Counted from the first letter of the stretch, positions 1,934 to 24,474 are shown. The stretch is 64,000 nt of DNA from an uncultured Chloroflexia bacterium (GCA_963754385.1 CAVWGE010000005.1:207565-271564); one strand, 5' to 3'. Translations and numbers: made by a program. Notes: generated by a model not told the origin, from the letters alone.

Positions 1934-1936
1934 TTT

Positions 1937-2305: not shown

Positions 2306-2320
2306 GATTCCTTGTCTCTT

Positions 2321-2602: not shown

Positions 2603-2605
2603 AAG

Positions 2606-4211: not shown

Positions 4212-4214
4212 TGC

Positions 4215-4511: not shown

Positions 4512-4538
4512 TCTATCCCTGCCTTTTCAACTACCTTT

Positions 4539-5360: not shown

Positions 5361-5379
5361 AGCTTATCTCCCCCTAATC

Positions 5380-5475
5380 CTAGGGATGTTTCCTTTGCCA
5401 TCGTGTCTTTCTCAGGAGTTTGCGATGCTTATGCTTCGCCATTTTTTTCTTACGTTTCTTTATTACTGAGCCCAA
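5380..5475 (-). CDS. 31-aa bS22-like (AURKAIP1/COX24-domain) small ribosomal protein, below the ORF-track cutoff
   Basis: TTG start with AGGGG SD; translation [31 protein letters not shown] closely matches the bS22 pattern [25 protein letters not shown]. Confidence 0.9.
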   Translation of the reverse strand: [31 protein letters not shown]

Positions 5476-5492
5476 TTCTATTCCCCTATTCT

Positions 5493-5777
5493 TTAAACTC
5501 CTTCGAAAAACTCTATTTTCTGGTCCGGCCCCAAGGTAACAACTGCTTTCTTCCAAGACGGAGTTAATACATACCGTCTGCCTATTCTTCTCATCTTCCC
5601 CGGAACACTCATTACATTAACCTTAACCACTTTGACCTTAAACGCTGCTTCCACAGCGTCTTTAATCTGACGTTTATTGGCCTGCTTCGCCACTTCAAAG
5701 GCATACCTGTTCTGTTCTTTCATCAGCGTAGCCTTTTCAGTGATTAAAGGCCGTCTTACTACCTCATAAATATGCAT
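5493..5777 (-). CDS. rplW: 50S ribosomal protein L23
   Basis: RPLITEKA...WKKAVVTL. Confidence 0.97.
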   Translation of the reverse strand: MHIYEVVRRPLITEKATLMKEQNRYAFEVAKQANKRQIKDAVEAAFKVKVVKVNVMSVPGKMRRIGRRYVLTPSWKKAVVTLGPDQKIEFFEGV

Positions 5778-5789
5778 AACCAATAAACC

Positions 5790-6458
5790 CTAAACTTTTG
5801 ATTTACTGACACTACCTGCTGCCTCCGGAGCCGACTTCTCGCCCCACAGCTCTTCCACCTTCCGCACCGCGTCCACAGTCATTACCAACGCTTTGAAGGA
5901 AAGTAAATCAGCCACGTTAAGCAGGGGCGCCGGCATTGTCTTAACGCCTAGTAAATTGCGCGCCGATTTAACCAAATTAGCCTCAGCTTCAGCGGTAGCG
6001 ATGATGACAGAATCACCGATCTCCAAGGCTATCAACATATCCAGTATCGCCTTAGTCTTCGGGCCGTCAAGCTCAAGCTTGTTAACAACCTTCAACTCTC
6101 CACCACTTGCCTTACCGGAAAGAACGCACCTCAAAGCCAAACGCCGCATCTTCCTGGGCATATCTTGCCGATAACTTCGAGGATGCGGTCCGAATATCAC
6201 TCCACCTCCCCGGAGAAGAGGTGACCTAACATCGCCGCGGCGTGCCCGACCGGTATGCTTCTGAGCAAAAAGTTTCCTGGTGCTACCTCTAACCTCGCCT
6301 CTTCTCTTGGTATCAGCAGTCCCCTGGCGACTATTAGCTAGGTGCCTGAGTAACGCTTGATGCACCACGGCTTCATTAAAGGGCACAGCAAAAACATCGT
6401 CCCTTACTTCGAGCTGCCCGGTTACTTTACCCTTCAAATTATGAACCTGAACTTGCAC
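5790..6458 (-). CDS. rplD: 50S ribosomal protein L4 (GTG start at 6458 preferred)
   Basis: RQGTADTK.RGEVRG...QKHTGRAR...GGGVIFGP. Confidence 0.97.
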   Translation of the reverse strand: MQVQVHNLKGKVTGQLEVRDDVFAVPFNEAVVHQALLRHLANSRQGTADTKRRGEVRGSTRKLFAQKHTGRARRGDVRSPLLRGGGVIFGPHPRSYRQDMPRKMRRLALRCVLSGKASGGELKVVNKLELDGPKTKAILDMLIALEIGDSVIIATAEAEANLVKSARNLLGVKTMPAPLLNVADLLSFKALVMTVDAVRKVEELWGEKSAPEAAGSVSKSKV

Positions 6459-7080
6459 TCTGCTTACCCTCACCAACTTTCTTAATCAGCAACAATCCTT
6501 TTTTAGAACCAGGCACCGCCCCCTTCACCAGCAACAAGTGACGAGCCAAATCGACATCGAGCACTTTAAGATTACGCTCGGTTACTCGCCTGTCCCCCAT
6601 ATGCCCGGCCATACGCGTTCCTTTTAATACCCGCCCCGGAGATGTAGTGGCGCCAATCGAGCCAGGAGCTCGATGACGGTCGGACTGCCCGTGGGTCTTA
6701 GGACCGCCAGCAAAATGATGGCGTTTGACTACACCGGCAAAACCTTTACCCTTTGATATACCGGTGACATCAAGCAAATCGCCCGGCTTAAACATATCCA
6801 CATCGACTTTCTGCCCCACTTGAACAGAGCTGATATCCTCTACGCTAAACTCACGGAGATGTTTGAATTGACCTATCTCCTTAAGATGGCCTTTTTGCGG
6901 AGAGTTAAGCAGCTTGGCTTCCCCGAAGCCAAGCTGAACAGCATTATAACCATCCTTAGCCTCGCTCTTTACTTGAGTAACAAAGCAAGGACCTACTTCA
7001 ATAGCAGTCACTACAACTTCTCCATCATCACGGAAAAGTTGTGTCATGCCTATTTTTCTACCAATCATGCCCTGAATCAT
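6439..7080 (-). CDS. rplC: 50S ribosomal protein L3
   Basis: KIGMTQ...SKGKGFAGVVKR...MAGHMG. Confidence 0.98.
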   Translation of the reverse strand: MIQGMIGRKIGMTQLFRDDGEVVVTAIEVGPCFVTQVKSEAKDGYNAVQLGFGEAKLLNSPQKGHLKEIGQFKHLREFSVEDISSVQVGQKVDVDMFKPGDLLDVTGISKGKGFAGVVKRHHFAGGPKTHGQSDRHRAPGSIGATTSPGRVLKGTRMAGHMGDRRVTERNLKVLDVDLARHLLLVKGAVPGSKKGLLLIKKVGEGKQSASSGS

Positions 7081-7088
7081 TTCTCTGA

Positions 7089-7397
7089 CTACAATCTAAT
7101 ATCTATCTCCACCCCGGAGGGCAGCTGAAGTTGAGTCAACGCATCTATAGTTTTAGAGGTCGGCCCAAGGATATCAATAAGGCGTTTATGCGTACGCATT
7201 TCGAACTGTTCACGTGAATCCTTATCGATAAAGGGCGAACGAATAACACAAAACTTTTCAATCCGAGTAGGCAAAGGCACCGGCCCGGCAATCACAGCAC
7301 CAGTACGCTCCGCAGTCTCCACAATTTGCTCCGCGGATTGGTCAACCAGCCTGTGGTCATACCCTCTAATTTTGATTCGAATCTTTTGCTTAGGCAT
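7089..7397 (-). CDS. rpsJ: 30S ribosomal protein S10
   Basis: GPVPLPT...[18 protein letters not shown]. Confidence 0.98.
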
Positions 7398-9476
7398 TTA
7401 TCTCCCTCTAACCCTAACCTCTATTTGCCCCGCTAGGCTAGCTGGTAATTCTCTATAGCAATAAAACTCCAAGGAATAGGTTGCTCTGCCCTGACTTAAT
7501 GACCTAAGGATAGTAGCATAACCGAAAATATCAGCTAGAGGAACAAGAGCACGAACAACACAGGTTTCACCGTGTGTCTCAATGCCCTCAATGTGTCCCC
7601 TCCTTGAATTCAAATCGCCGATAACGTCGCCCAAGAACTGGGCTGGCATCACTACTTCCAATTTCATAATCGGCTCGAGGAGTATGGGATTGGCCTTACT
7701 CACACCATTCTTCAAAGCTATCGAACCTGCCATCTTGAAAGCCAGGTCAGAGGAATCCACCTCGTGGTAACTACCATCAAACAGAGTTGCTTTAATATCT
7801 ACTATTGGATAGCCTGCCACCATACCGCTTTCCAGAGCCTCCCTAACTCCAACTTCGACTGCCGGAATATATTCCTTTGGTATGTCTCCACCTCGAACCT
7901 TGTCAACAAATCTAAAGCCGCTACCTCGTTCTCCGGGTTCAAGCTTGAGCCAGACATGACCATATTGTCCTCTGCCGCCAAACTGACGAATAAATCTACC
8001 TTCTATTTCTACCGTTATAGTAATGGTCTCTTTATAGGCTACCTGCGGCTTACCAACCCTCACCTTCACATTAAACTCACGAAGCATACGGTCTATCAAA
8101 ACCTCTAGATGTAATTCGCCCATCCCGGAAATAAGGGTTTGTCCGGTTTCCTTGTCAGTACGTACTTTAAAAGTGGGGTCCTCTTCCGAGAGCTTGTTCA
8201 TGGCTTCACCCAGCTTATCTTGGTCCGCCTTGCTCTTAGGTTCTACAACCATCGACAGCACCGGCTCGGGGAAGCGGATAGCCTCGAGAAGTACTGGTCG
8301 AGCTGGGTCACACAACGTGTCCCCGGTGAAGGTATCCTTAAGGCCTAAAGTAGCGGCGATGCTACCGGTATCGGTCTCTTCAATCTCTTCACGGCGATTG
8401 GCATGCATAAGAATCAACCTGCCGAGACGCTCCTTGCGTCCTTTGCTGGAGTTGAGCACCCGCATTCCCGCTTTAACTTTGCCTGAATAAACCCGAAAAT
8501 AAACCAGCCTACCCATAAATGGGTCAGCCACCACCTTAAAAGCTAGAGCCAAAAACGGAGCCTCATCGCTGGCCTGCCGAACATCCGCCTCACCAGTTTG
8601 CAAGTCAATAACAGGAACCGGAGGCACGTCCAACGGAGAAGGGAGATAATCCACAATGGCATCGAGCAGGGACTGAACTCCCCTATTACGCAAAGCACTA
8701 CCGCAAAGCACAGGCACTATCCGGTTAGCTACGGTTAATCTTCTTATGGCAGCCCTAATCTGATCGCTTTTAATTTCTCCGCCTTCAACATAAAGCAGCA
8801 TCAAATGGTCATCATTCTCGGCTAATCTCTCAATCATAGACTGTCTCTGCCTGGACACCTCTTCTTTCTCCTCTTCCGGAATAGGCGATTCCGCAGGCGG
8901 AACGCTCACGTCGTCAGAGAACAACCAGGCTTTATTATCAACCAAATCTATCGCACCCTTAAATTGACTTTCTTTACCCCAGGGCAACTGCACCGGTATC
9001 GCTTTAGCTTGCAGCCGCTCCTCGATCATAGTCACAGTGTGATTAAAATCGGCACCGACCCTGTCCATCTTATTGATAAAGCAGACCCTCGGCACACCAT
9101 ATCTATCCGCCTGCCGCCACACTGTCTCAGATTGGGCCTCCACCCCGGCCACGGCATCCAGCACCACCACTCCACCATCCAGGACCCGGAGACTTCGCTC
9201 GACTTCAGCAGTGAAATCGACGTGCCCCGGCGTGTCAATGATATTTATGCGGTTTTCCTGCCAGTGACAGGTTGTAGCTGCTGCAGTGATTGTAATCCCT
9301 CGTTCCCGCTCCTGTGCCATCCAATCCATCACCGCCGTTCCTTCATCCACTTCACCAACTTTATAGGTACGGCCTGTATGAAACAAAATTCTCTCAGTGA
9401 CAGTTGTCTTGCCAGCATCAATATGTGCAATGATGCCTATGTTCCGCACCTTGTCTAAAGGAAAAGTCCGGGTCAT
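7398..9476 (-). CDS. fusA: Elongation factor G (ATG at 9476 preferred)
   Basis: [33 protein letters not shown]. Confidence 0.98.
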
Positions 9477-9535
9477 GACATTGTTTCCTATACCAACCAC
9501 TTTTTTGGGCTGTTGGGACTTAATTTCTGCTGTAG

Positions 9536-10006
9536 TTACCATCGATAATGAGCAAAAGCTTTATTTGCCTCGGCCATCTTATGAGTATCCTGACGCTTCT
9601 TGATAGTTGCCCCCTGTCCCTGAGATGCATCTACAATCTCCGCCGCTAATTTCTCCGCCATAGACCTACCGCCACGAGCTTTAGCATAGCTGATCAGCCA
9701 GCGCATAGCCAGAGACAACCCGCGTGCAGCTTCAACCTCAATTGGCACCTGGTAAGTAGCGCCACCGACACGCCGAGATTTTACCTGAAGTAAAGGAGTA
9801 GCGTTCTTAAGTGCCTGGTCAAGAACCGCCAGAGGTTCTGTACTTAATTTCTTATTAACCAAATCCATAGCATCATAAACAATCCGCTCAGCCGTAGCTT
9901 TCCTTCCATCCGACATTATTTTTTTGATGAATATAGCCACAGTAACGTTCCCGTATTTCGGATCAGGGGGTGTTTGTCTTTTCAATACCCTAGATCGTCT
10001 TGGCAT
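9536..10006 (-). CDS. rpsG: 30S ribosomal protein S7
   Basis: [12 protein letters not shown]...[13 protein letters not shown]. Confidence 0.98.
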
Positions 10007-10489
10007 TTATTCCTCTCCCGCTCCCGCAGCCTTGACTTCTCCCGCAGCCCTGACTTCCTGCCCCGCAATCTTCACTGCTTTGCCTCGCTTAGCCCCATAT
10101 TTGCTGCGCCCCTGCTGGCGATTCTCCACGCCGGCGGTATCCAGAGCGCCCCGAACAATATGGTATCGAACCCCGGGCAAATCCTTCACCCTGCCGCCAC
10201 GGATAAGCACCACAGAGTGCTCCTGCAAATTATGGCCTTCGCCAGGTATATAAGCGGTAACTTCAATACCGTTGGTCAACCGCACGCGGGCGATCTTGCG
10301 CAAGGCGGAATTGGGCTTCTTAGGGGTCATCGTTTTGACCTGAACGCAAACCCCTCGCTTTTGCGGCGCGTGTGTATCCCGCCGAGTTATATTTTTCAGG
10401 GCATTGTGAGTAATACCCAGCGCCGGAGCTTTGGTTCGTTTACCGGTCTTCCGCCGCCCTTTTCGAACTAATTGATTTACTGTCGGCAT
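10007..10489 (-). CDS. rpsL: 30S ribosomal protein S12 with C-terminal extension
   Basis: [10 protein letters not shown]...[10 protein letters not shown]...KDLPGVRY. Confidence 0.98.
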
Positions 10490-10635
10490 TTCATTATTCC
10501 TTCTATTTATAACAATTAAAAAGCCACCTAGTTGTCTACCGGTCTACTTCCCGAGCAGGTTTGCGTTCCGGTTCAACCAGCCGGCTTAATCAGGTTTCCC
10601 GAACCCAGACTAATGGCTAGTAGACACAAAGCAGC

Positions 10636-12848: not shown

Positions 12849-13467
12849 CCAATAAAATTTTGCCCCAATCGCCGTATAGCTTGTGTTCTTTTATATAACC
12901 CTCTACCCCCTCAGGCACAAGCCCGTGAATAGATAACCCCCGAGCTACTCTGTTTCGTATGTCCGTAGAACTGATGTCAACCGGCGGCATATCCAGCCAG
13001 ACTACACGCTGAGTTACCCCGGGAACCAACGATTCCAGAGCCTTCAAATCCGGGCGGCTGAAACCCGGCCTGGTAACCGCCACCAACTTGCAGAGCTGAA
13101 TCAGCCTGTCCGGCTCCTTCCATTGAGGCAGCTCAGCCAGGCTATCCCAGCCGACTAAGAAGAAGAGCCTTGCCCCGGCACCCAGTTGCTGCTGCAGAAT
13201 AGCTACGGTCTCCACGCTTAAAGAAGGGCCGGGGCGGTCTATCTCGATAGCCGAAAGCTCAAAATGAGGGTTGGCAGCAATCGCCCGCTTCACCATCTCT
13301 ACACGGTGAGCTGCCGGGGTGATTTTTCTGGCTGTCTTAAACCATGGCTGCCCTGCGGGAACAAAGAGAACTCTGGCAAGTCTGAACTTTAGCCTGGCTT
13401 TCTCAGCTATAACAAGATGCCCCGAATGTATGGGGTCGAAAGTGCCGCCTAATACACCTATATTCAT
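12829..13467 (-). CDS. nadD: Nicotinate-nucleotide adenylyltransferase
   Basis: GGTFDPIHSGH...ISSTDIR. Confidence 0.95.
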   Translation of the reverse strand: MNIGVLGGTFDPIHSGHLVIAEKARLKFRLARVLFVPAGQPWFKTARKITPAAHRVEMVKRAIAANPHFELSAIEIDRPGPSLSVETVAILQQQLGAGARLFFLVGWDSLAELPQWKEPDRLIQLCKLVAVTRPGFSRPDLKALESLVPGVTQRVVWLDMPPVDISSTDIRNRVARGLSIHGLVPEGVEGYIKEHKLYGDWGKILLAKYPGS

Positions 13468-14525
13468 TTACCCCGCCTAACCTTGGGCTTAGGTCTAAAA
13501 ACAGCCATCGGCGCCTCTGGGCCGGTGCCCTTCTCCTGAACCTCCTCCAACATTTTAGCTGTTTCCGACACAAGCTCAGACACGCCTTGCCTGGTAACTG
13601 CAGAAACAAAGAAGGCCTTTACCCCCAGAGAGCTGAAGAGCTGTCCAATCTCCGGCAACCGAGCTTTAACCTCCGGCAAATCTATCTTATTCACCACCAC
13701 AACCTGAGGCTTTTGAGCCATCTCTGACTTATATAAAGCCAGCTCCCTGTTCAGGTTGCTCATATCATCAATTATAGACGGAGACATACCATCAAGTACA
13801 TGAAGCAAAATCTTAGTCCTTTCAGCATGGCGCAGGAATTCATGCCCCAGCCCCCTGCCCAGATGAGCACCATCTACAAGCCCGGGAATCTCCGCTAAAA
13901 CAAATGTCTTCATCCCTACCTCAACTACACCCAGCGCCGGCTCAAGAGTGGTAAAAGGATAATCAGCTATTTTCGGCCTGGCTTTAGACACGGCTGCCAA
14001 AAGGGTGGATTTACCCACGTTAGGATAGCCCATAATACCCACATCAGCAATAAGCTTAAGGTCAAGGACAACACGATGTTCTTCGCCAGGCTTGCCTTTA
14101 GTAGCTGTTTTGGGAGCCTGGTTCGTAGACGTGGCAAAATGGACATTCCCCAACCCACCCCTACCCCCTTTAGCCACCAGGACTTTTTGCCCTTGCTGAC
14201 TCAAGTCAGCCAGCAGTACCTCTAGCTCACCCTCCTTAAGAAATACAACAGTTCCCAAAGGCACATTAATTACGAGGTCATCACCCTTTGCACCATGTTT
14301 TTTCTGCTTCCCCCCACTCTTCCCGGATACCGCCTTAAAGCGCCTCTTATGCCGAAAGTAATTCAGTGCAGTGATACTTCTATCAGCAACAATGTAGGCA
14401 CTCCCACCAGCCCCGCCGTCTCCACCATCAGGACCACCAAGCGGCACAAACTTCTCATGCCGGAAGCTAACTACACCATTACCACCATTACCACCCCCTA
14501 TCACAATTTCAGCTCTATTTACCAT
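13464..14525 (-). CDS. obgE: GTPase Obg/CgtA
   Basis: Gly-rich Obg fold GGPDGGDGG; GYPNVGKST; YPFTT; NKID. Confidence 0.96.
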   Translation of the reverse strand: MVNRAEIVIGGGNGGNGVVSFRHEKFVPLGGPDGGDGGAGGSAYIVADRSITALNYFRHKRRFKAVSGKSGGKQKKHGAKGDDLVINVPLGTVVFLKEGELEVLLADLSQQGQKVLVAKGGRGGLGNVHFATSTNQAPKTATKGKPGEEHRVVLDLKLIADVGIMGYPNVGKSTLLAAVSKARPKIADYPFTTLEPALGVVEVGMKTFVLAEIPGLVDGAHLGRGLGHEFLRHAERTKILLHVLDGMSPSIIDDMSNLNRELALYKSEMAQKPQVVVVNKIDLPEVKARLPEIGQLFSSLGVKAFFVSAVTRQGVSELVSETAKMLEEVQEKGTGPEAPMAVFRPKPKVRRGK

Positions 14526-14763: not shown

Positions 14764-16133
14764 TCAAGATGCGGATGAGGTTCTTCTGGGCAGCAACTTC
14801 CGGCGTATCTCTTGGATTGAACTGTGAAGCTGGGGATTAACGTCTATTTCCGCAGCTATCTTTTCGGAACCATGTATTATTGTTCTGTGTCCCCTGCCGC
14901 CAAGCAATTCGCCGATTTCTGCCAGGCTACAGTGGTTGTGCTCACGTAACAGGTACATGGTGACCTGACGGGCTAGAGCGGTTTTCTTATCTCTCCCTTT
15001 ATCTGCCAGCCCTTCAAGGTTAATGCCGTAGTAGTTAGCCACAGTGGTCATTATGAGCTTCGGTGTAAGCATGGCTTCTTGCTTGCTGTCTTTTGGAATT
15101 ATGTCTGCCAGTGCCTGCGTGGTTAAGTGCATATCTAGTTTCCCGCCGCTCAGACTTGAGTAGGTGAGCACTCTGTTTAAGGCGCCTTCTAATTCTCGAA
15201 TATTGTGCTGGAACTGTGTGGCTAGAAACCGCAGGACTTCCGGTGGAATTGACATGTTTAGCCGCTTCGCCTTAACTTTGAGTATGGCCAGGCGTGTTGC
15301 CAAATCCGGTAGCCCCAAATCAGCAACAAGTCCCCATTCAAGCCGGGACTTTAATTTCTTGGTTACCGAGGGTATGGCTTTTGGTGGTCGGTCGCTGGTA
15401 ACTACAATTTGGCAGTTATTTTCATAGAGGTCGTTGAAAATGTGTAACAAGCATTCTTGGGTTTGTGCTTTGCCACTTAGGAATTGGACGTCATCGACCA
15501 GCAGGAAATCGACGCTCCTGAACTTGCGGTGGAAATCATCGATCCTGTTGTTCTTGAGTGCGATTACAAACTGGTTAGTAAACTGCTCAGCGCTAGCCAG
15601 CAGTACGCGGCAGCCCTTGGCTTTAACTGTGTGTCCGATGGCATGCAGGAGATGTGTTTTGCCTGTACCGGTATCACCGTAGATGAAGAGGGGATTGTAC
15701 TTATTCCCGGGTCCTCGGAAACATCTAAAGCTGCTGCATAAGCCAGGCGGTTGCATTCACCGACTACGAAGCTATCGAAAGTATATTTTAAATTGAGCCT
15801 GAATGCTGCTGTTGCCGGTTCCTTAAGTCTGGCGCTTGTCCCGCCGTCAGCATGGTAAGCGGGTACCGGGGAGGTATCCTGGCTCGGAGCCCGAATTGCA
15901 AACTGGATGTCAACGGTGTTGCCGGTAATGCCGGTCAACGTCCTTTTAATCAGAGAGTGGAGGCGGCTTCTTAGCCATTCGGCGATGAAGACGTTAGGGA
16001 CACCGATAACAAAGACATCTTCTTTATAACTTACACCGGTGGTGTCCTTAAGCCAGGTATCATAATTCGGCTTATTGACTTGAAGTTGAAGTTCTCCTAG
16101 AGCTGCTTCCCATATTGCTTGTGCTGACTTCAA
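14764..16133 (-). CDS. dnaA: Chromosomal replication initiator DnaA, interrupted by a 1-nt frameshift at about 15705-15711
   Basis: ORF 15564-16133 gives domains I-II and YTFDSFVVG..N; ORF 14764-15756 gives YNPLFIYG..G.GKTHL, DDVQF, NIRELEGAL and domain IV; the two join at EDPG/NKYNP. Confidence 0.93.
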
Positions 16134-16385: not shown

Positions 16386-17330
16386 ATGTCAGAACGCATC
16401 ATTTTTATGGGGACCCCGGAGTTTGCTGTTCCCAGTTTGGAGGCTTTGATTCGCAGCACTTACCGGTTGGTTGCCGTATATACTCAACCAGACAGGAAGG
16501 CTGGCCGGGGGCAGAGCGTTGCTTTCTCTCCTGTAAGGCAACTGGCTTTATCTCAGGGGCTCGAGGTGGTTCAGCCGGATAGCTTGAAAGACACTGGCAC
16601 AGTTGAGAAGCTGGCTGGTTTTGCTCCGGACCTGATTGTGGTGGCAGCTTTTGGGCAGATTCTGCCGCCGGAGGTGCTGGCTTTGCCGAAGTTTGGTTGT
16701 GTCAATGTCCATCCCTCTCTTCTGCCTCAATATCGGGGTGCCTCACCGATAGCCACGGCAATTTTGCGAGGTGATGAAATTACCGGCGTCACCATTATGT
16801 TGCTGGATGCCGGCATGGATACCGGCCCTATTTTGAGCCGGAAGGAAGTCCCCATATCTGCTGATGATACTACCGGTTCGCTCGCCGCTAAGTTAGCTCA
16901 AGTCGGAGCACAATCGCTTATGGAGATATTGCCTTTGTGGATCGATGGGCGAATTAAGCCGCGGCCTCAGGCGGAAAGTCAGGCCAGTTATAGTAAGGTT
17001 ATAACCAAAGGCGATGGAGAGATGGACTGGCGACTTCCGGCTCTGGACTTATGGCGACGCGTCCGCGCTTTCGACCCCTGGCCGGGTTGCTTCACCTGGT
17101 GGCGAGGTAAACGTTTAAGGCTTATTAAGGTAGTGCCGCTGCATGGCGACAGGTCCGGCGAACCTGGCAAGGTGATAGCCTTATCTCCGCCGGCGCCGGC
17201 GACAGTTGGGGTCGAAACCGGAGATGGAGTTCTGGGGCTGCTCAGGGTCCAATTGGAGGGTAAGCGGGAGATGTCGGCAGATGAGTTTGTGCGCGGGCAG
17301 CGGGATTTCATTGGCAGCAGTCTGCTTTGA
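16386..17330 (+). CDS. fmt: Methionyl-tRNA formyltransferase
   Basis: FMGTPEFAVPSL, TQPDR, NVHPSLLP.YRGASPI, MDTGP. Confidence 0.97.
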   Translation: MSERIIFMGTPEFAVPSLEALIRSTYRLVAVYTQPDRKAGRGQSVAFSPVRQLALSQGLEVVQPDSLKDTGTVEKLAGFAPDLIVVAAFGQILPPEVLALPKFGCVNVHPSLLPQYRGASPIATAILRGDEITGVTIMLLDAGMDTGPILSRKEVPISADDTTGSLAAKLAQVGAQSLMEILPLWIDGRIKPRPQAESQASYSKVITKGDGEMDWRLPALDLWRRVRAFDPWPGCFTWWRGKRLRLIKVVPLHGDRSGEPGKVIALSPPAPATVGVETGDGVLGLLRVQLEGKREMSADEFVRGQRDFIGSSLL

Positions 17331-17384: not shown

Positions 17385-18089
17385 ATGTTTTTCTTTGACC
17401 CGGTGTGGTTTCTCGTTATGCTGCCCCCCTTTATCTTCATGATTTATGCCCAGGTGAAGGTGAATTCAGCCTTTAATAAGTATTCCAAGATGGCTAATTC
17501 ACAAAATGTCACCGGGGCTGAAGCAGCCGAAAGATTGCTTCGGGCCAACGACTTGAGCAATATCAAAGTTGAGGGGGTGAAAAGCAAGCTGGGTGACCAC
17601 TACGACCCGGGTAAAAAAGTGTTACGTCTATCCCCGGCGGTAGCTAATACCCCGTCTGTTGCCGCACTTGGAATCGTGGCTCACGAGGTAGGGCATGCCG
17701 TTCAAGATAAGACGGGCTATGCCTTTCTTAGATTTCGCACTTCTCTGGTGCCGGCGGCTAGCCTGGGCAGTACCCTTGGCTACATCTTTGTTATCCTGGG
17801 TTTATTATTGGTTATGTTCGGCACCCAGTTCGGTATGACTGTTGTCTGGGTGGGTGTTTTTCTCTTCTCCCTGGCGGTGATTTTCAGCCTGATTACATTA
17901 CCTGTAGAGTTCAATGCCAGCAATCGGGCCAGGCAGATGTTACGCAGCACCGGAATGGTCTCTACCGAGGAATATAACGGAGCCAGCGCTGTCTTGTCGG
18001 CTGCTGCCCTCACCTATGTGGCGGCTACGCTTCAGGCGGTGGCTCAGCTTTTCTATTTTGTCATGATTGCCCTGGGCGGCCGCAGGTAA
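17385..18089 (+). CDS. Membrane zinc metallopeptidase (YugP-like)
   Basis: DHYDP, AHEVGHAVQ, TLPVEFNAS.RA, AALTYVAA. Confidence 0.9.
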   Translation: MFFFDPVWFLVMLPPFIFMIYAQVKVNSAFNKYSKMANSQNVTGAEAAERLLRANDLSNIKVEGVKSKLGDHYDPGKKVLRLSPAVANTPSVAALGIVAHEVGHAVQDKTGYAFLRFRTSLVPAASLGSTLGYIFVILGLLLVMFGTQFGMTVVWVGVFLFSLAVIFSLITLPVEFNASNRARQMLRSTGMVSTEEYNGASAVLSAAALTYVAATLQAVAQLFYFVMIALGGRR

Positions 18090-18093
18090 TCGA

Positions 18094-18280
18094 GTCAGTG
18101 CGAGTCCCGATGCAATCGGGATCCCTGTCATTGCGAGCCCTTCGCCTTGGTTATTCCGAGCCCTTCACTTTTTGTCATCCTGAGCCCTCCCCCTGTCATT
18201 CTGAGTCCTTCTCTTTGTGTCATTCTGAGGGAGCGAAGCGACGAAGAATCTCGCTCAGGGTAAACTCCGCGAAGAATCTC
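18094..18280. repeat. Nested/tandem palindromic intergenic repeat, copy A
   Basis: About six tandem GTCATT(G/C)(C/T)GAG heads at roughly 21-32 bp spacing, inner hairpin CCCGATGCAATCGGG, two GAAGAATCTC tails. Confidence 0.8.
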
Positions 18281-18351
18281 CGGGATTGCTAATTTATATC
18301 CGCCCCTATTATAATTGCGCCGAGACAAGTAAGTCCTATCGGGGTTACATT

Positions 18352-19134
18352 TTGTCTAAAGACAAGAATCCAGGCACCTTTGCTGCGCTCAAGAAGATTA
18401 TTGCCAGGCTGCGTGGCCCGGCTGGCTGTCCCTGGGATAAAAAGCAAACTCACGCCTCGTTAAAACCGTACTTAATTGAGGAGTGCTACGAGGTCTTGCA
18501 AGCTCTGGATGAGGGGACTCCGCAAAAAATCTGCGAGGAGTTAGGTGACCTTCTGCTTCAGATTATGCTTCATGCCCAAATTGCTGCCGAGGCAGGGCAA
18601 TTTAACATCGATGATGTTGTCCGGGGTATAAGCAGCAAGCTGATTCATCGCCATCCCCATGTCTTCGGTGGCCAGAAAGTACAGGATGCCGGGGAGGTAG
18701 AGCTGAACTGGGAGGCTTTAAAGCAGGAAGAGCGGGAGGAAGGAGAATCGCTTTTAGCCGGCGTACCTGAGCAAATGCCGGCGCTGGCCTACAGTCTATC
18801 TATTCAGCGGCGGGTAGCCAGAGTCGGTTTTGACTGGGAGAAAGTGGAGGAAATCATAGATAAGCTGGCTGAAGAGGTGGCTGAGATTAGACAGGCACCC
18901 GACCAGCAGGAGAGAGCCAAAGAGTTCGGCGATTTGTTTTTCACGCTGGCCAATGTAGCTCGCCGGCTGGATATAGACCCGGAGATGGCGCTCCGCTCGG
19001 CAAATCAGCGCTTCTATCGTCGCTTCGCCTACATGGAAAAAGTCTGCCGTGAGCGCGGTATCAACTTCGGCAGCCTGTCTTTGGACGACCAAAACGTCTT
19101 GTGGGAAGAAGCCAAGAAAAAGGTGGAGAAATAG
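18352..19134 (+). CDS. mazG: Nucleoside triphosphate pyrophosphohydrolase MazG
   Basis: LRGPAGCPWD.KQTH.SL, EELGDLLLQ, RHPHVF, GFDW, EFGD; start uncertain (TTG 18352). Confidence 0.95.
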   Translation: MSKDKNPGTFAALKKIIARLRGPAGCPWDKKQTHASLKPYLIEECYEVLQALDEGTPQKICEELGDLLLQIMLHAQIAAEAGQFNIDDVVRGISSKLIHRHPHVFGGQKVQDAGEVELNWEALKQEEREEGESLLAGVPEQMPALAYSLSIQRRVARVGFDWEKVEEIIDKLAEEVAEIRQAPDQQERAKEFGDLFFTLANVARRLDIDPEMALRSANQRFYRRFAYMEKVCRERGINFGSLSLDDQNVLWEEAKKKVEK

Positions 19135-19141
19135 GTAACCT

Positions 19142-19519
19142 TTAATAAGAGCCTTGTTCTTTAGGCTGAGGCCCTTGTTGTCGCTTTCTTTCTCGCATTC
19201 GCTTAAGGTGCCGTATTAGTTCCTGCATTTCCTCATCGGTAATATCCAATGATAAGATAGATTGTGGCCAGTATGCCCTTCGCTGGATATCTTCAATTGA
19301 TATCTCATAAGCGATTGCAATTTCATATAATATTTCGCCTCGGAGAGATTTCTGAGTTCTTTGCCCCCTTTCTATTTTACAAATACAACTCTTATCTCTT
19401 CCGATCCTATCTGCTATTTCCTGTTGAGTTTTTCCCTGAGATAGTCTTATTTCTGTCAAGTACTTGCCAATATCTGATGAAGTTCGTTCTTTTCTCGAAG
19501 ATCCCTTTCGCTTGGCCAT
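19142..19519 (-). CDS. XRE/Cro-C1 family HTH transcriptional regulator
   Basis: IGKYLTEIRLSQGKTQQEIADRIGRDKSCICKIERG. Confidence 0.88.
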   Translation of the reverse strand: MAKRKGSSRKERTSSDIGKYLTEIRLSQGKTQQEIADRIGRDKSCICKIERGQRTQKSLRGEILYEIAIAYEISIEDIQRRAYWPQSILSLDITDEEMQELIRHLKRMRERKRQQGPQPKEQGSY

Positions 19520-19557
19520 GATATAGTCATCCTAGCTTATCAAATAAACTGATTTGG

Positions 19558-19608
19558 TAGTTGACATTTTGAGCTTTAGTTGACATTTTGTCAATTAAAG
19601 CATATAAT
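19558..19608 (+). promoter_or_regulatory. Consensus sigma70 promoter with overlapping operator-like repeats
   Basis: TTGACA(19580)-17 nt-TATAAT(19603); palindrome TTGACA-TTT-TGTCAA 19580-19594; direct repeat TAGTTGACATTTTG at 19558 and 19577. Confidence 0.8.
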
Positions 19609-19715
19609 TTTATTGATAGGACAGTTTGCTGTTGCAAATAACCCAAACAGCAGGTAAAATATGAGTCCTAGAGGTTCAGGCCGGTCGGGGGGCCAATGTA
19701 GAAGGAGGAGGTAGA

Positions 19716-20141
19716 ATGGCGAAACAGACGGCAAGAGAACTGACAGATCCTCGTTCGTATATTACATTTGACGATATCATAGCCCTAGCCCTAGCAAAGA
19801 CCAAATCTAATCAGTTTAATGCTTCCTCTAGCAAATGGCAGGAGGTTCTTTACGATATACGTGAGCGGTTTAAGGGTGAAATCGTAGAACTTAGGATGAT
19901 GTTGTTTGACGAAAGTCGATCAGATATTCCACCCCAGAGCGAGGAGTTCTATCAGCTCATCAATATATTATCTGCGGCAAAGCTGATAAGCCTTCCCAAC
20001 CCGACTTACGAGAACATCCTCATGGATAATTTACAAAAGGAACGCGCAGTAAGTTTGGAAGAGAGATTGCTCAGGAAATATGAAAATCATATTAATGATA
20101 TTGCCGATATTATTGAAGAAAAATTAGCAGTACGCTCATAG
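19716..20141 (+). CDS. Hypothetical protein, possibly winged-helix (YwgA/DUF4065-like)
   Basis: Strong SD AGGAGGAGGT; motif PPQSEEFYQLINIL..AKLI resembles the P.S.E....L..L...GLI segment of YwgA/SocA-type folds (by eye only). Confidence 0.7.
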   Translation: MAKQTARELTDPRSYITFDDIIALALAKTKSNQFNASSSKWQEVLYDIRERFKGEIVELRMMLFDESRSDIPPQSEEFYQLINILSAAKLISLPNPTYENILMDNLQKERAVSLEERLLRKYENHINDIADIIEEKLAVRS

Positions 20142-20160
20142 TCCTTTTGCCATGTAAATA

Positions 20161-21690
20161 ATGGACGGCGAAGAGGCATTCACCCAATTAAGAGCGCAAA
20201 CAGAAGCCTGGCTAGCCTCGATCACACCAAGCGATTATCTAAAACTCCTTCGAATGCCTAAGAAGGATGATGTCAAAATCATCCGGGATGCTGTCAGTGG
20301 CTATCAGATTCTCGAACCACATGAATATCTTGTTCTAGACCATCCCATCCTGCAAAGGCTCCGTTATATTCACCAAACTGCTCTTGCCTATCTTGTATAT
20401 CCTACCGCCAATCACACACGCTTTGACCACAGCCTTGGATGTGCAAAGATTGCACAAGAGATAGGCGTCCATCTTATTCCAGAGGACAAGACGCGAATAG
20501 CGGAACTCAGGCTCGCCGCGCTCCTTCACGATATTGGGCACACCTTCTTTTCGCACTTGTCGGAGACAATTATGGAAAGCCATTTCAAGGATTTCTATGA
20601 CGCATTGAGCGAAGCCAAGGAATTTAAAGGGCTTAAGTTGAAACTTTCGGAGATGATGTCTTATCTCATCGTCACAAGTGAGACATTTCATAACTTCTTA
20701 GATAGGGTAGTCCATTACTATTATGAATCTGGGTTTGACCTTGATAATGTCGCAAATTTAATAATACACAAGCCTACTAATACACTTGCCTATATGGCAG
20801 ACATCATAAGCGGACCGTTTGATGTGGACAAGCTAGACTATCTGGTGAGAGATTGCTACTTCACTGGAATACGTGCAGATGTAGATGTTGAGCGTGTGGT
20901 GGTTTCCACAAGTCTGCTTGACAAGGACAGATTTCCGGCGACTGACCTAAAATGGCAAAGGCGCTCATTGGTTATGCAGACCGGTGGTGTGAGTATACTA
21001 GAGCAAATTACCTTCAATAAAATGCTGCTTTTTCCCGCAATTTATCACCACCATAAGGTTCGAGCGCTTGAGTGCATGGTCAAGTCAATCTTCGAAATCA
21101 TATGGGAAAATGGCCAAGTAAAAGATCGTCGGCTAAATTTTAAAGACATTCTTGATTTCTATAAATTAACGGAGCCGGAGTTTTTTACCTTGGCAAAAGC
21201 GGAACCAAAACTGGAGCCTATCATCAATAGATTGTTGAAGCGAGATTTATTGGAGCGATGTTTGGTGCTTTTACCTCGCTATGCGAAAGACCCTAGTGGC
21301 TGGAAACATTTAGGGAAACGCCATTATGAAGATGATCCCGGGCAGATAAAATGGCTACGTGAGTGTATCTGGCAGGAGTTACCAGGAGAAGTAAGAGGTC
21401 TTGTCAGTATATGCGATCTTTGGGTGGATATCCCAAAGACTCCAGACTTGGGTGACCCAGACAGGGCTTTTGTGGATATCGGCACCAATGAATTGCTTTC
21501 TCTTTCTGAATTCTTTTCCTATCCGCATTGGATTTCTGCCTACGAAACTAACAAATTAAAGGGACATGTGTTTTCATTATGTGCGCTAGAGATAAGGAAG
21601 ACGGTGAACAAGGTGGCCCAAGAAGTGCTGAAAGAACAGTTTGGACTAGAGTTTAAGCCCCGGGCCACTCTAGAGTGTAGACTCGACTGA
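20161..21690 (+). CDS. HD-domain phosphohydrolase, SAMHD1/YwfO/EF1143-like dNTP triphosphohydrolase
   Basis: IRD, LQRLRYIHQ, YP.A.HTRFDHSLG, AALLHDIGH.FFSH..E, DVDKLDYLVRD, IYHHHKVR. Confidence 0.9.
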   Translation: MDGEEAFTQLRAQTEAWLASITPSDYLKLLRMPKKDDVKIIRDAVSGYQILEPHEYLVLDHPILQRLRYIHQTALAYLVYPTANHTRFDHSLGCAKIAQEIGVHLIPEDKTRIAELRLAALLHDIGHTFFSHLSETIMESHFKDFYDALSEAKEFKGLKLKLSEMMSYLIVTSETFHNFLDRVVHYYYESGFDLDNVANLIIHKPTNTLAYMADIISGPFDVDKLDYLVRDCYFTGIRADVDVERVVVSTSLLDKDRFPATDLKWQRRSLVMQTGGVSILEQITFNKMLLFPAIYHHHKVRALECMVKSIFEIIWENGQVKDRRLNFKDILDFYKLTEPEFFTLAKAEPKLEPIINRLLKRDLLERCLVLLPRYAKDPSGWKHLGKRHYEDDPGQIKWLRECIWQELPGEVRGLVSICDLWVDIPKTPDLGDPDRAFVDIGTNELLSLSEFFSYPHWISAYETNKLKGHVFSLCALEIRKTVNKVAQEVLKEQFGLEFKPRATLECRLD

Positions 21691-21762
21691 AATTTTCAAT
21701 GTTGGTTATCCGGCTGCTGCAACTTAGCAAAACTAGATTCGCATAAACCTAAATATGGAGAA

Positions 21763-21793
21763 TCGGGGCGAGAGGACTCGAACCTCCGACCTC
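21763..21793 (-). repeat. att-like 31-bp duplicate of the tRNA-Pro 3' end
   Basis: tcggggcgagaggactcgaacctccgacctc is identical to 23113-23143. Confidence 0.93.
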
Positions 21794-21821
21794 TCTTACA
21801 GGTCTTAATTGTTCTGGCGTT

Positions 21822-21850
21822 TTGACATTTGTATTTTAAAATAGTATACT
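21822..21850 (+). promoter_or_regulatory. sigma70 promoter of the parA operon
   Basis: TTGACA(21822)-17 nt-TATACT(21845); the -10 lies inside the first 9-bp repeat. Confidence 0.75.
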
Positions 21851-21932
21851 GAGTATACGTAGTACACTGGGTTTACATAGTAATCAGAGTAAACAGAGTA
21901 TACAGAGCAAACGTAGTAAACGTAGTAAACAA
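21843..21932 (+). repeat. 10 x 9-bp tandem array, putative centromere/operator (parS/parC-like)
   Basis: AGTATACTG AGTATACGT AGTACACTG GGTTTACAT AGTAATCAG AGTAAACAG AGTATACAG AGCAAACGT AGTAAACGT AGTAAACAA, followed directly by the SD TAAGGAGG. Confidence 0.88.
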
Positions 21933-21946
21933 TAAGGAGGTATTTA

Positions 21947-22714
21947 TTGAGAATAATAAGTTTAACCAATGAAAAAGGTGGGGTAGGAAAAACGACATGT
22001 ACTTTAAACCTGGGAGCTGCCCTGGTTAGCCTTGGTAAAAAGTGTCTTTTAATTGACCTGGACCAGCAAATGGCTTTGACTTATAGTTTTGGTATACCAC
22101 CTGACCAAATAAAAGAGAGCATATATGAGGTCTTACGTGGAGAGGCTAAGCTGGATGCTGCTATGTGGGGGCAGCCCAATAACAACTTATTTGTCGTGCC
22201 CGCAAGCCCTAAACTGGCTGGTTTCGACGTGGAAATGGCTAACGAAGTAGGTAGTCAGATGTTATTAAAGGAAATCGTGTCCGGCGTCAATGGCTTTGAC
22301 TATATACTATTCGACTGTCCACCAAGTCTAGGTATGATAGTGGTTAATGCCCTTACTGCTGCCAGGGAGATTTTTGTGCCTATGCAAGCTGAATATTTAA
22401 GCATGCAAGGCATGGCGAGACTGTTAGAGATTGTAGAACGTGTTAAAAAGCGACTTAATAGCAACCTGGAAATAACGGGAATTATAGGTACGATGTACGA
22501 CCAGAGGCGTATTTTGAACAGAGAGGTTATTGCGAAAGTAGAGGAGCATTTCCCAGGCAAAGTTATAGGCGTAATTCGGGATTGTATAAGCCTGGCAGAA
22601 GCACCATCAAGGTGCTGGGATATTCTAGAATACAGACCGAATAGCCTGGGTGCTCAGGATTTTATGGCTCTAGCTCAGAGAGTAGTACAGATGGAGGTGC
22701 ATTATGGAGCGTAG
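21947..22714 (+). CDS. parA: ParA/Soj family Walker-A ATPase (no N-terminal HTH, type Ib-like)
   Basis: NEKGGVGKTT, LIDLDQQ, DYILFDCPPSLG, LAEAPS. Confidence 0.93.
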   Translation: MRIISLTNEKGGVGKTTCTLNLGAALVSLGKKCLLIDLDQQMALTYSFGIPPDQIKESIYEVLRGEAKLDAAMWGQPNNNLFVVPASPKLAGFDVEMANEVGSQMLLKEIVSGVNGFDYILFDCPPSLGMIVVNALTAAREIFVPMQAEYLSMQGMARLLEIVERVKKRLNSNLEITGIIGTMYDQRRILNREVIAKVEEHFPGKVIGVIRDCISLAEAPSRCWDILEYRPNSLGAQDFMALAQRVVQMEVHYGA

Positions 22715-23063
22715 GTTAGGCAGAGACCCTTTTGCTCAAAGTGGCTTAGATAAGATTTTTACGCCAGTTGTAGAGCAAGCGACTACACCTACTCCAAAGC
22801 CAACAATAGTTAAGGCAAAACCACGTATTAAAGCAAGTGGCGGGGTAAATATCCCCGACGTGTCCGCTGTTAGTACCTCTGAATCATCTAGTCTCTCTAC
22901 ATCAGCTAAAGGATTGCCAGAAGGCTGGACTAGAGCTACTTTTATCGTGCGTCAGGACCTGGTACACAAGGTAAAAAGAGCTGCTTATTGGGATAGGAGG
23001 CAGATTAAAGACTTGGTAACCGAAGCTTTAGACGCTTATCTGGTAGACAAAAAGACGGACTAA
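22704..23063 (+). CDS. ParG-like ribbon-helix-helix partition adaptor
   Basis: Overlaps parA stop; N-terminal RRLGRDP..GLD ParA-activating-like peptide, disordered S/T/P linker, C-terminal RHH-like TRATFIVRQDLVHKVKRAA...IKDLVTEALDAYL. Confidence 0.75.
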   Translation: MERRLGRDPFAQSGLDKIFTPVVEQATTPTPKPTIVKAKPRIKASGGVNIPDVSAVSTSESSSLSTSAKGLPEGWTRATFIVRQDLVHKVKRAAYWDRRQIKDLVTEALDAYLVDKKTD

Positions 23064-23112
23064 CCTTAGAGCGAAAAACACGGATTAACAGGGATTAACA
23101 CAATTTTGAATG

Positions 23113-23186
23113 TCGGGGCGAGAGGACTCGAACCTCCGACCTCAGCGTCCCGAACGCTGCGCGCTACCAGACTGCGCTACGCCCCG
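23113..23186 (-). tRNA. tRNA-Pro(CGG)
   Basis: CGGGGCG acceptor stem, anticodon arm CAGCG-TTCGGGA-CGCTG, T arm GGAGGTTCGAGTCCTCT; CCA not encoded. Confidence 0.96.
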
Positions 23187-23286
23187 CCACCGCATATTAT
23201 AAGCGGCTTTAATTTCTGGGGCAAGCAGTGGTACACTAACAGTGTCCATATGACGGTGAAGCGCAATGACAATGGACTAAAAGAAG

Positions 23287-24474
23287 ATGAAGTACTGTGT
23301 TCTTATAATCGACGGTGCCGCCGGCTGGGCATTGCCTGAGCGTGGAAATAAGACCTGTCTGGAGCTTGCCCATGTCCCGAATCTGGAGGCAATGGCACGG
23401 GAAGGGTTTGTCGGGCTGGTCCGGACTGTGCCGCAGGGGATGGAGCCCAGCAGCGCCTGTGCCTGTATGTCGGTGCTTGGCTATGACCCGAAGGTCTATT
23501 ACCGGGGAAGGAGCGCTATCGAAGCCAGGAGTATGGATATTCCTGTTGCCAAAGACGAGGTTGTTTTCCGCTGCAATTTGGTCGCCGTCCGTGACGGAAA
23601 GATGTGGAGCTATAGCTCGGGGCATATCGACACCGACGAAGCCCAGGCACTTGTCGCAGCTCTAAATGAAAAGCTTGGCAATGACAAGATACATTTTTAT
23701 CCCGGTGTTCGGTATCGGCATATATGCAAGATAAAAGGGCATGATGATACGCTTCTGGCTAACTGCACTCCGCCGCATGATATACCGGATAAGCCCATCG
23801 CTGAGTTTCTTCCTCAAGGCTCTGGCAGCGACCTGTTACGAGACCTTATGGAAAGGTCTAAAGCTGTGCTTAAAAAGCATCCGGTGAATTTAGAGAGGCA
23901 GGCTCGCGGTGATATTCCGGTGACGATGATTTGGCTATTCTGGGGCAGCGGGCGAATACCCGAGATGCCGTCTTTCAAGCAGATTTATGGCCTCGGGGCG
24001 GCTATGACATCCGGGGTTGACCTTCTCCGCGGCTTAGCCGGGATGGCGGATATGGCAGTGTTGGATATACCGGGTGTGACCGATGGTCTGGATAATGATT
24101 ACGCAGCCCAGGCGGTCGGAGCTTTGAAGGCGCTGGAAAAGTATGATTTGGTTGTCATCCACATTGAAGCACCGGATGAGGCAGCTCATGCCGGTTCGGT
24201 CGATGATAAGATAGAGGCTATACAGATGGTGGATAAAGAAGTTGTCAGCCGCATACGCTCCTGGAATCCGGATGCAATTCGGGTTCTAGTCTTGCCTGAC
24301 CACCCAACGCCGATAAAGATTCAGACTCACACTGATGAGCCGGTACCATTTATGCTCTGGGGTTCCGGGTTTGCCTCCAACGGGGCAAGAGGGTTCACCG
24401 AGACCGAGGCTAAAAGCACTGGCATCTTTATTGAAGACGGTTATAATATTATGATTCAACTGAAACGTATATAG
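23287..24474 (+). CDS. Cofactor-independent phosphoglycerate mutase family (ApgM-like; proposed homoserine kinase type)
   Basis: IIDGA, SVLGYDP.VYY.GR..IEA, TPPHDI, HIEAPDEAAH.G, PDHPTP; adjacent to aspartokinase. Confidence 0.85.
   Translation: MKYCVLIIDGAAGWALPERGNKTCLELAHVPNLEAMAREGFVGLVRTVPQGMEPSSACACMSVLGYDPKVYYRGRSAIEARSMDIPVAKDEVVFRCNLVAVRDGKMWSYSSGHIDTDEAQALVAALNEKLGNDKIHFYPGVRYRHICKIKGHDDTLLANCTPPHDIPDKPIAEFLPQGSGSDLLRDLMERSKAVLKKHPVNLERQARGDIPVTMIWLFWGSGRIPEMPSFKQIYGLGAAMTSGVDLLRGLAGMADMAVLDIPGVTDGLDNDYAAQAVGALKALEKYDLVVIHIEAPDEAAHAGSVDDKIEAIQMVDKEVVSRIRSWNPDAIRVLVLPDHPTPIKIQTHTDEPVPFMLWGSGFASNGARGFTETEAKSTGIFIEDGYNIMIQLKRI

Follow-up and report, generated by a model that had tools for sequence, protein, structure and literature searches.

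A three-gene module occupies part of the 64,000-nucleotide stretch of DNA analysed here (the window; GCA_963754385.1, CAVWGE010000005.1:207565-271564), which comes from an uncultured Chloroflexia bacterium whose genome is assembled in 6 contigs (1.98 Mb, 96% complete). The module lies between mazG and a tRNA-Pro gene and is composed of an XRE-family regulator gene, a divergently oriented gene for a protein of 141 amino acids (aa) and a gene for a 509-aa, SAMHD1-like HD phosphohydrolase. It is accessory and laterally acquired, and it sits at a variable, tRNA-linked site. Both the small protein and the gene pair are covered by no curated family or defence model, and the module looks like an undescribed variant of partner-gated nucleotide depletion. 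Our preferred reading is that the module would deplete nucleotides under the control of a repressor, with the small protein restraining the enzyme, and would act either in the manner of a toxin-antitoxin (TA) system or against phages; taken as a whole chain we give it about an even chance of being right. Its observed part consists of the gene architecture, the conservation of the pair, the island status, the catalytic residues, the remote homology and the complex model, while the mechanism is argued by analogy with SAMHD1, bacterial dGTPase, Clover and PanA-PanT. Genomes and loci are designated below by our own numbers (G and L).

Acquisition of the module

DNA homology to the genomes of the genus is lost at ~19116-19131 and returns at the tRNA gene. 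When the site was compared with the DNA of 13 other genomes of the genus it proved to be empty in seven (G127, G128, G129, G132, G133, G134 and G137), mazG being situated only ~20 bp from the tRNA-Pro and phosphoglycerate mutase (iPGM) genes. Two others (G131 and G136) contain only a segment specifying a ParA-like protein and a 119-aa protein, three (G126, G130 and G135) have a contig break at the site, and G138 carries 4.3 kb of other cargo including a type III restriction-modification pair. In this sister species the latter consists of an N6_N4_Mtase protein (556 aa) and a ResIII protein (745 aa) at positions 523-4427 of L158 (G138:C10:300-5500).

The base composition of the module is likewise foreign. 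With a G+C content of 0.422 the block 19135-21763 ranks last among 307 sliding windows of 2.6 kb, for which the median is 0.494, and G+C at third codon positions is 0.32-0.46 in the module genes versus 0.56-0.59 in the flanking fmt, mazG and iPGM. A preliminary description, made from the nucleotide sequence, had considered the block to be AT-richer than its flanks and to lie between mazG and a tRNA attachment (att) site; both statements hold. The 3' end of the tRNA-Pro gene is duplicated downstream of the HD gene. The duplication is part of a 42-nt direct repeat (21752-21793 and 23102-23143; 88% identical, with an identical core), and its segment 21765-21792 is identical to part of tRNA-Pro(cgg), giving two matches where none was expected from 100 shuffles. 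This att-like repeat forms the right border of the module and the left border of the adjoining ParA element, a 1.3-kb segment with the 119-aa gene (21794-23111) that is bracketed by the tRNA-Pro 3' repeats. L022, a metagenome contig of a near-identical strain whose proteins are 94-99% identical to those of the window, shows the order mazG, XRE gene, small gene, HD gene, tRNA-Pro and iPGM with no ParA segment. Together with the repeats around that segment, this indicates two separate cargoes lying side by side at the tRNA gene. No integrase gene was found in the three-gene module or in the ParA element. The ParA segment also occurs elsewhere in G133, G135 and G137, and all copies, including those of G131 and G136, are 79-91% identical in DNA sequence.

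The HD phosphohydrolase

The 509-aa protein was identified as possessing Pfam HD (PF01966; 47.5 bits, cut-off 22) and HD_assoc_2 (PF19276; 33.6 bits, cut-off 23.1) domains. It displays the SAMHD1 motifs HxRFxHSLG, LLHDxGHxxFSH and DxDKxDYxxRD, which can be aligned with SAMHD1 proteins of solved structure (E ~1e-18 to 1e-20) and with 2hek (1.4e-24), and the catalytic and metal residues H85, R87, H90, H123, D124, H132, E135, D221, D223, K224, Y227, R230 and D231 are invariant in 56 homologues. The full set of SAMHD1/YwfO catalytic motifs previously read from the translation is thus present. In the Protein Data Bank (PDB) the two closer matches carry no functional name, and the closest functionally named relatives are all SAMHD1 deoxynucleoside triphosphate (dNTP) hydrolases. 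Outside the motif regions the protein shows little identity to characterised dNTPases; the best stretches in the PDB correspond to residues 28-150 and 192-314.

The C-terminal 164 residues have a confident predicted fold (predicted local distance difference test, pLDDT, 85.5). Among 48,161 chains the top three structural matches to this region came from SAMHD1 of C. elegans, Rhizophagus and human, in each case from the C-terminal lobe: 6pwy (Z 7.2, root-mean-square deviation [rmsd] 4.6, 135 residues aligned), 9mr6 (Z 7.0, rmsd 4.3, 136 aligned) and 7ujn (Z 6.8, rmsd 4.2, 133 aligned). Although every Z value falls under the noise mark of 8 set for the tool, we take the resemblance to be meaningful because the three best matches belong to one protein family and to the equivalent position in it. 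In human SAMHD1 the C-terminal lobe has a role in tetramer formation and allosteric nucleotide binding and is the target of viral antagonists; the mapping of these functions onto the present protein is approximate rather than residue by residue. Since a canonical Dgt-type dGTPase is encoded separately, on a different contig of the genome (TIGR01353, 214 bits), the enzyme of the module is an extra, non-core one. In a phage collection searched with tblastn, relatives of the HD protein were only 26-30% identical and occurred in records of Klebsiella, Listeria, Staphylococcus and Enterococcus phages.

The HD superfamily is catalytically diverse, and one might propose that the substrate is not dNTPs but NTPs, alarmones, cyclic or oligonucleotide signals or nucleic acid, so that the locus would specify a different kind of effector-partner pair. 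The low identity to characterised dNTPases outside the motifs agrees with such a proposal, as does a locus in a metagenome-assembled genome (MAG) of the Spartobacteria (L050, 3159-10619). Here a 917-aa protein fuses a SAMHD1-like HD domain to PRTase-CE (PADLOC PRTase_III-A, E 1.4e-22), and its neighbours are a SIR2_2+AAA protein and one resembling nucleoside 2-deoxyribosyltransferases; this is likely a conflict island in which the same enzyme is wired differently. We nonetheless regard a substrate other than dNTPs as quite improbable in view of the complete SAMHD1-type motifs, the HD_assoc_2 domain, the SAMHD1-like C-terminal lobe and the identity of the functionally named structures.

Conservation and distribution of the gene pair

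The preliminary description had made its proposal depend on the two genes being conserved together, and this is what was found: the small gene lies directly upstream of a full-length HD homologue, on the same strand, in 16/16 distinct loci (the window, L022-L025, G084, G041, G042, G012, G299 [L027 = L043], L044-L048 and L051). Nine of these came from genomes of the order and from metagenomes and seven from 80 HD loci of GTDB, one of the seven repeating an earlier contig; the window completes the set. They are distributed over Chloroflexota, Proteobacteria, Gemmatimonadales, Acidobacteriaceae, Terriglobia and Stellaceae. Within the GTDB set the small gene accompanies seven of the ten HD proteins that align over their full length, including the C-terminal 140 residues, and none of the 70 others. 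The three full-length loci with no confirmed small gene are L049, L073, where the context is one of core purine and cell-wall genes (as read from translations), and L050, where an upstream 146-aa open reading frame (ORF) gave only 60.6% with hhalign and the small partner is unconfirmed.

The genes of the pair are separated by 19 nt in the window, overlap in L005, L025 and L006, and otherwise lie within ~20 nt of each other. They are therefore adjacent, co-directional, less than 100 nt apart and conserved as a pair across species, which is the arrangement used to recognise type II TA systems. The small gene is rare, being present in 3/202 genomes of the order, 0/13 other genomes of the genus and 2/401 genomes sampled in the phylum. 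In L044 the genes of a type I restriction-modification system (HsdR/S/M) are found directly upstream of the pair. Genes of the origin region occur within a few kb in 3/16 loci (the window, with dnaA, L045 and L047), and this nearness may be coincidental or may point to a role linked with replication.

The 141-aa protein and its predicted complex with the enzyme

A word-indexed search of 5.8 billion proteins returned 24 relatives of the 141-aa protein, and HMMER, run exhaustively over 1.84 billion representatives, gave 40 clusters at E <= 1e-3. A scan of genome contigs with the close-family alignment (A1) yielded no relatives. In the ESM Atlas the protein matched only unnamed clusters (0.95) and MJ1567 (0.91), and the 42 members of the family that were compared share no consistent Pfam family and no nucleotidyltransferase (NTase) family. 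Two candidate identities were rejected: PADLOC PDC-S63 (E 0.03), which we treat as noise, and TssA, the sole match of the family profile to PDB sequences (E 0.14).

In the AlphaFold2 model (pLDDT 84.5) the protein forms a compact alpha/beta domain that includes two short strands. Modelled together, the small protein and the HD enzyme gave ipSAE scores of 0.88, 0.89 and 0.89, and all three controls scored 0.00; the mark used for these scores was reached by 58/80 solved complexes and by 2/110 mismatched pairs. In the models the partner has a pLDDT of 86, and at least 83% of the contacts are common to the runs. On the partner side the predicted interface is made up of the invariant residues P12, Y15, T17, D19, D20, Q42, F64, Q74, Y79, S86 and L90-P96, and on the enzyme side mainly of residues 372-399 and 426-462, within the SAMHD1-type C-terminal lobe. 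Modelling of the pair, which had been suggested as a check, thus supports contact between the two proteins, with the small protein bound to the C-terminal lobe of the enzyme.

The small protein had earlier been called a winged-helix protein, an assignment that we do not retain. Its weak fold matches are mostly to winged-helix DNA-binding proteins (SarS with Z 7.5, SarA, the ORC/Cdc6 winged helix, PadR and MarR), and it is on these that one might base the suggestion that it is a second, DNA-binding regulator which does not contact the enzyme at all. The resemblance is generic and lies within noise (all Z values below 8; best Foldseek E 0.03). Moreover, the invariant residues fall on the predicted protein-protein interface, translational coupling links the small gene with the HD gene at several loci, and a dedicated XRE regulator is already there. 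A DNA-binding role therefore seems very improbable indeed.

Probable relationship to a Bacillota gene pair and to Panacea proteins

The small protein had also been likened to YwgA and to the Panacea proteins. Bacillus subtilis presumably contains a comparable pair, YwfO, which we take to be a SAMHD1-type HD protein, and YwgA, which we take to be the product of a small gene. A small gene (157-191 aa) stands beside the HD gene in three YwfO-like loci of the Bacillota and in one locus of the Gastranaerophilales. The YwgA-like family was found in 58/301 sampled genomes of its phylum, and in 29/32 loci the HD gene lies directly upstream of the small gene, stop and start codons often overlapping. 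In the loci of this group (L123-L154; G592, G824 and others) the small gene specifies 150-191 aa and the pair appears to be uncharacterised. A word-index search with one YwgA-like protein retrieved only four proteins, none of them named.

Comparison of the 141-aa family with the YwgA-like family by hhalign gave 89.9% (E 1.7e-6) over 64 columns, corresponding to residues 71-135 of the window protein; no value above 1.3% arose from 30 column shuffles, and reversing the alignment gave 0.3%. Six of 27 YwgA-like proteins in turn match Pfam SocA_Panacea (best E 5.5e-7). The same model (PF13274) was matched by 0/42 members of the 141-aa family at E <= 0.01, and the window protein gave no match at E <= 0.1. 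Of the earlier likeness, then, the link that runs through the YwgA-like proteins is indirectly supported for the C-terminal half of the protein, and a direct Panacea assignment is not. From these profile comparisons we consider it probable that the 141-aa family is remotely related to the YwgA-like and Panacea proteins.

Regulation of the module

The product of the regulator gene belongs to the HTH_3 family (27.7 bits, cut-off 23). The gene is divergent from the small-gene/HD operon, whose predicted promoter, TTGACA(19580)-17-TATAAT(19608), alone matches the consensus perfectly out of the 15 promoter-like sites of 18900-23300; shuffled sequences contained 8.3 +/- 2.7 sites. The gene order and the divergent promoter set out in the preliminary description, with ORFs of 141 and 509 aa downstream, were found as stated. 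A candidate promoter for the XRE gene lies on the opposite strand and overlaps the first. The 5' leader showed no more stable folding than shuffled sequences (z 0.01).

The two promoters share a putative operator. The sequence TAGTTGACATTTTG is present in two direct copies (19558-19571 and 19577-19590), and a 13-pair palindrome extends over 19573-19601 with TTGACAtttTGTCAA at its centre. One arm of TTGACAtttTGTCAA is the -35 box of the operon and the other arm is the -35 box of the candidate XRE promoter. This GTTGACA-N3-TGTCAAC palindrome recurs in the spacer between the XRE gene and the small gene of L022, L006 (G041) and L007 (G042), with arms of up to 10-11 bases, and is thus kept in four loci including the window; identity to the XRE protein of the window is only 43-47% in L006 and L007. 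At the 16 loci a divergent XRE-type gene of 121-133 aa scores above the Pfam cut-off in eight and more weakly in one other; besides the homologues in L006 and L007, HTH_3 genes above the cut-off occupy this position in L023, L024, L025 and L047. A palindrome which covers both -35 boxes and recurs beside diverged XRE proteins is in keeping with autoregulation by a repressor able to shut the two promoters, and we infer that the XRE protein may bind there.

At L005 and L008 an ORF of 76 aa (3572-3802 and 3548-3778, respectively, both on the minus strand) takes the place of the divergent XRE gene and precedes the pair in the same orientation. Its products in these loci are alike and match no Pfam family; they may represent an alternative regulator.

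Proposed mode of action and its alternatives

Based upon these features the following course of events can be suggested. The XRE repressor would bind the palindrome over the -35 boxes of the two divergent promoters and so keep both itself and the operon at a low level. The 141-aa, Panacea-related protein and the SAMHD1-like HD triphosphohydrolase would be made together and form the predicted complex through the C-terminal lobe, within which the small partner would keep the enzyme inactive or gated. Were the partner lost, displaced or triggered, for example by phage infection or by a halt in host gene expression, the enzyme would be freed. It would then hydrolyse dNTPs and DNA replication would stop, the outcome being abortive infection or stabilisation of the element.

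Several observations weigh against this reading. With regard to the enzyme, the curated models of anti-phage dGTPases fit poorly: NF041026 gave 13.4 bits against a cut-off of 400, NF003701 gave 11.8 bits against 383, and the PADLOC dGTPase model (PDLC02374) gave 31.5 bits over residues 85-144 only (~60 aa). The small protein has no match in the Pfam, NCBIfam, PHROGs or PADLOC families, fold searches with its model stayed within noise (best Foldseek E 0.03, best VIA-align Z 7.5), and no relatives were detected in phage and viral collections by the A1 scan or by tblastn. Of the checks that accompanied the original proposal, the comparison with PADLOC models gave no good fit for either protein. 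The complex model is equally compatible with an inhibitor, an activator or a sensor role of the partner.

The relationship to the Panacea proteins is open to similar remarks. The likeness to the YwgA-like family is confined to the C-terminal half of the 141-aa protein, and with thinner profiles hhalign gave only 15% (against a four-sequence YwgA-like template) and 20.5% (with A1), so that the relationship is to be taken as probable rather than proven. Panacea proteins have a conserved GPV signature motif, according to the available part of PMC8832971; at this position the window protein has PPQS and the YwgA-like family GPYS, the G being lost and only P73 invariant.

The preliminary description had suggested a survey of neighbourhoods for enrichment in defence islands, and restriction-modification genes do indeed occur, of type III at the same site in G138 and of type I in L044. 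Known defence genes adjoin a confirmed pair in only 1/16 loci (L044), however, and a PADLOC scan of 10 neighbouring proteins had matches only in L050. In two loci the pair is situated among core genes, judging from translations: in L047 (Terriglobia MAG, 32-10621) it lies between gyrB and gyrA, near dnaN and dnaA, and in L045 (Gemmatimonadales MAG, 5761-9037) it lies beside mnmE and yidC. Finally, the frequency of the Bacillota pair is compatible with a housekeeping enzyme and its regulator rather than with a conflict system.

The last points favour an explanation in which the HD protein is an accessory nucleotide-pool enzyme and the small protein a constitutive subunit or allosteric adaptor that balances dNTPs, with no TA or anti-phage role; the enzyme might trim the pool in stationary phase or during DNA repair, for example, and the XRE gene would only tune expression. 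The abundance and regular gene order of the Bacillota pair, the core context of L045 and L047, the presence of the window among the three loci near dnaA or origin genes, and the failure of the HD protein to fit a curated defence model are all in keeping with it. The patchy occurrence of the family (3/202, 0/13 and 2/401 genomes) is not, nor is the foreign G+C content of the module relative to its flanks, its position at a variable tRNA-linked site where the sister species holds restriction-modification genes, or the existence of a Dgt enzyme in the same genome. A dedicated repressor with an operator overlapping the promoters would also be more typical of costly or toxic cargo. We judge such a role to be unlikely and return to partner-gated nucleotide depletion for the comparisons that follow.

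Comparison with known systems

The module enzyme shares with SAMHD1 and its prokaryotic relatives (the Aquifex protein 2hek and EF1143-type proteins) the HD motifs and the Pfam HD and HD_assoc_2 domains, and its C-terminal lobe finds its best structural matches in that of SAMHD1. Unlike SAMHD1 it has no SAM domain, and its gene belongs to a mobile cassette that also specifies an obligatory small partner and an XRE regulator.

The Bacillota YwfO/YwgA-like pair resembles the module in having a SAMHD1-family HD gene beside a gene for a small Panacea-related protein, with stop and start codons often overlapping. It differs in that the HD gene comes first, the small protein has 175-191 aa and the HD protein ~405-435 aa, and the pair is far commoner. 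The C-terminal region of the Bacillota HD proteins does not align with the C-terminal lobe of the module HD family.

In the Clover system, as presented in the accessible portion of PMC12265719, the dNTPase CloA is a toxic effector restrained by CloB, an NTase of the Pol-beta type whose product is an inhibitory nucleotide. The two-gene logic of an accessory protein restraining a dNTPase may be common to both systems, the argument here being drawn by analogy from the genes and the model. As far as that portion of the source goes, two differences are apparent. The partner in the module is a 141-aa, non-enzymatic-looking protein which has no NTase match and is predicted to bind the enzyme directly, and CloA is Dgt-like whereas the module enzyme is SAMHD1-like.

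Single-gene anti-phage dGTPases deplete dNTPs by means of an HD enzyme and are found in defence contexts (bioRxiv 10.1101/2021.04.26.441389; Vdg, PMC13519002; both from partial texts). The effector chemistry proposed for the module would be alike; in these partial texts the dGTPases stand alone, with neither partner nor repressor, and their curated models are unmatched by the module enzyme.

PanA-PanT systems have Panacea (DUF4065, PF13274) antitoxins that bind diverse toxins and may be sensors (PMC8832971, PMC10440598), with an architecture of alpha1-7 and beta1-2 (PMC10440598), as given in the sections of these papers that were available. By that account the module is similar in that a small protein is encoded beside a potentially toxic enzyme, a direct complex is predicted, there is remote profile similarity by way of the YwgA-like family, and the model of the 141-aa protein is likewise a compact alpha/beta fold with two short strands. 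By the same account it differs in that the 141-aa family lacks a Pfam match (0/42) and the G of the GPV motif, and in that DNA binding is assigned to a separate XRE gene. The main texts of the two papers mention no HD domain, phosphohydrolase or SAMHD1, and 'dNTP' appears once (PMC10440598); their supplementary tables could list HD-type partners. Among the papers open to our search none joined Panacea or PanA to SAMHD1 or HD-domain partners, and YwfO/YwgA had only incidental mentions.

Features of the surrounding DNA

The features of the module and its surroundings are collected in Table 1. An Rfam scan gave nothing above threshold except the tRNA. The dnaA region consists of two overlapping ORFs in different frames, of 189 aa (15564-16133) and 330 aa (14764-15756), which suggests a frameshift, either real or due to an assembly error. 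The spacer between the Zn-peptidase gene and mazG (~18124-18290) contains a short repeated element of ~90-160 bp, present in many copies across the genomes of the genus and in several within its own genome (74-94% identity among the matches listed). It looks like an intergenic repeat of the MITE or REP kind.

Table 1. Genes, regulatory sites and repeats in and around the three-gene module (window coordinates)
Feature	Position	Strand	Basis or remark
obg	13464-14525	-	name read from translation
dnaA	14764-16133	-	name read from translation
fmt	16386-17330	+	name read from translation
Zn-peptidase	17385-18089	+	Pfam
mazG	18286-19134	+	Pfam MazG, E 9e-34; ends 7 bases short of the XRE stop
Three-gene module, inserted between mazG stop and tRNA-Pro 3' end	19135-21763		homology break, gene order in L022, G+C
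XRE-family HTH regulator, 125 aa, divergent from operon	19142-19519	-	Pfam HTH_3
Putative operator	19558-19601		direct repeats and palindrome
Candidate XRE promoter, TTGACA-17-CAAAAT	19566-19594	-	10/12 positions, consensus match only
Predicted sigma-70-type promoter of small-gene/HD operon, TTGACA-17-TATAAT	19580-19608	+	12/12 consensus positions
141-aa partner gene	19716-20141	+	ORF; GGAGGAGG just upstream
509-aa SAMHD1-like HD phosphohydrolase gene	20161-21690	+	Pfam HD and HD_assoc_2
Duplicated tRNA-Pro 3' end, att-like; right border of module and left border of ParA element	21752-21793		repeat
ParA-like gene	21947-22714	+	Pfam
119-aa gene	22704-23063	+	ORF
tRNA-Pro(cgg), integration landmark	23112-23186	-	ARAGORN; Rfam tRNA, 65.4 bits
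Phosphoglycerate mutase (iPGM)	23287-24474	+	name read from translation

Significance

From bacteria to humans, HD enzymes that deplete nucleotides are an established means of antiviral defence. To our knowledge, the way in which a toxic dNTP-depleting enzyme is safeguarded is known for very few systems. The module suggests another such safeguard, a protein partner related to Panacea, the antitoxin domain described as 'universal', seated on the SAMHD1-type regulatory lobe, together with a dedicated repressor.

One may go further and suppose that bacterial SAMHD1-like dNTPases are, as a rule, governed by small Panacea-type partners on the C-terminal lobe which serve as infection sensor or safety catch; we offer this as a tentative generalisation that seems to us doubtful. 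If it were true, the rare XRE-controlled cassette and the common YwfO/YwgA-like pair of the Bacillota would both descend, as separate branches, from a single ancient system of partner-gated nucleotide depletion, with a function in immunity or as a TA system, distinct both from the single-gene dGTPases and from Clover. In any case the module, a compact cassette of ~2.6 kb, provides a hypothesis for the widespread and uncharacterised pair of HD gene and small gene in the Bacillota.

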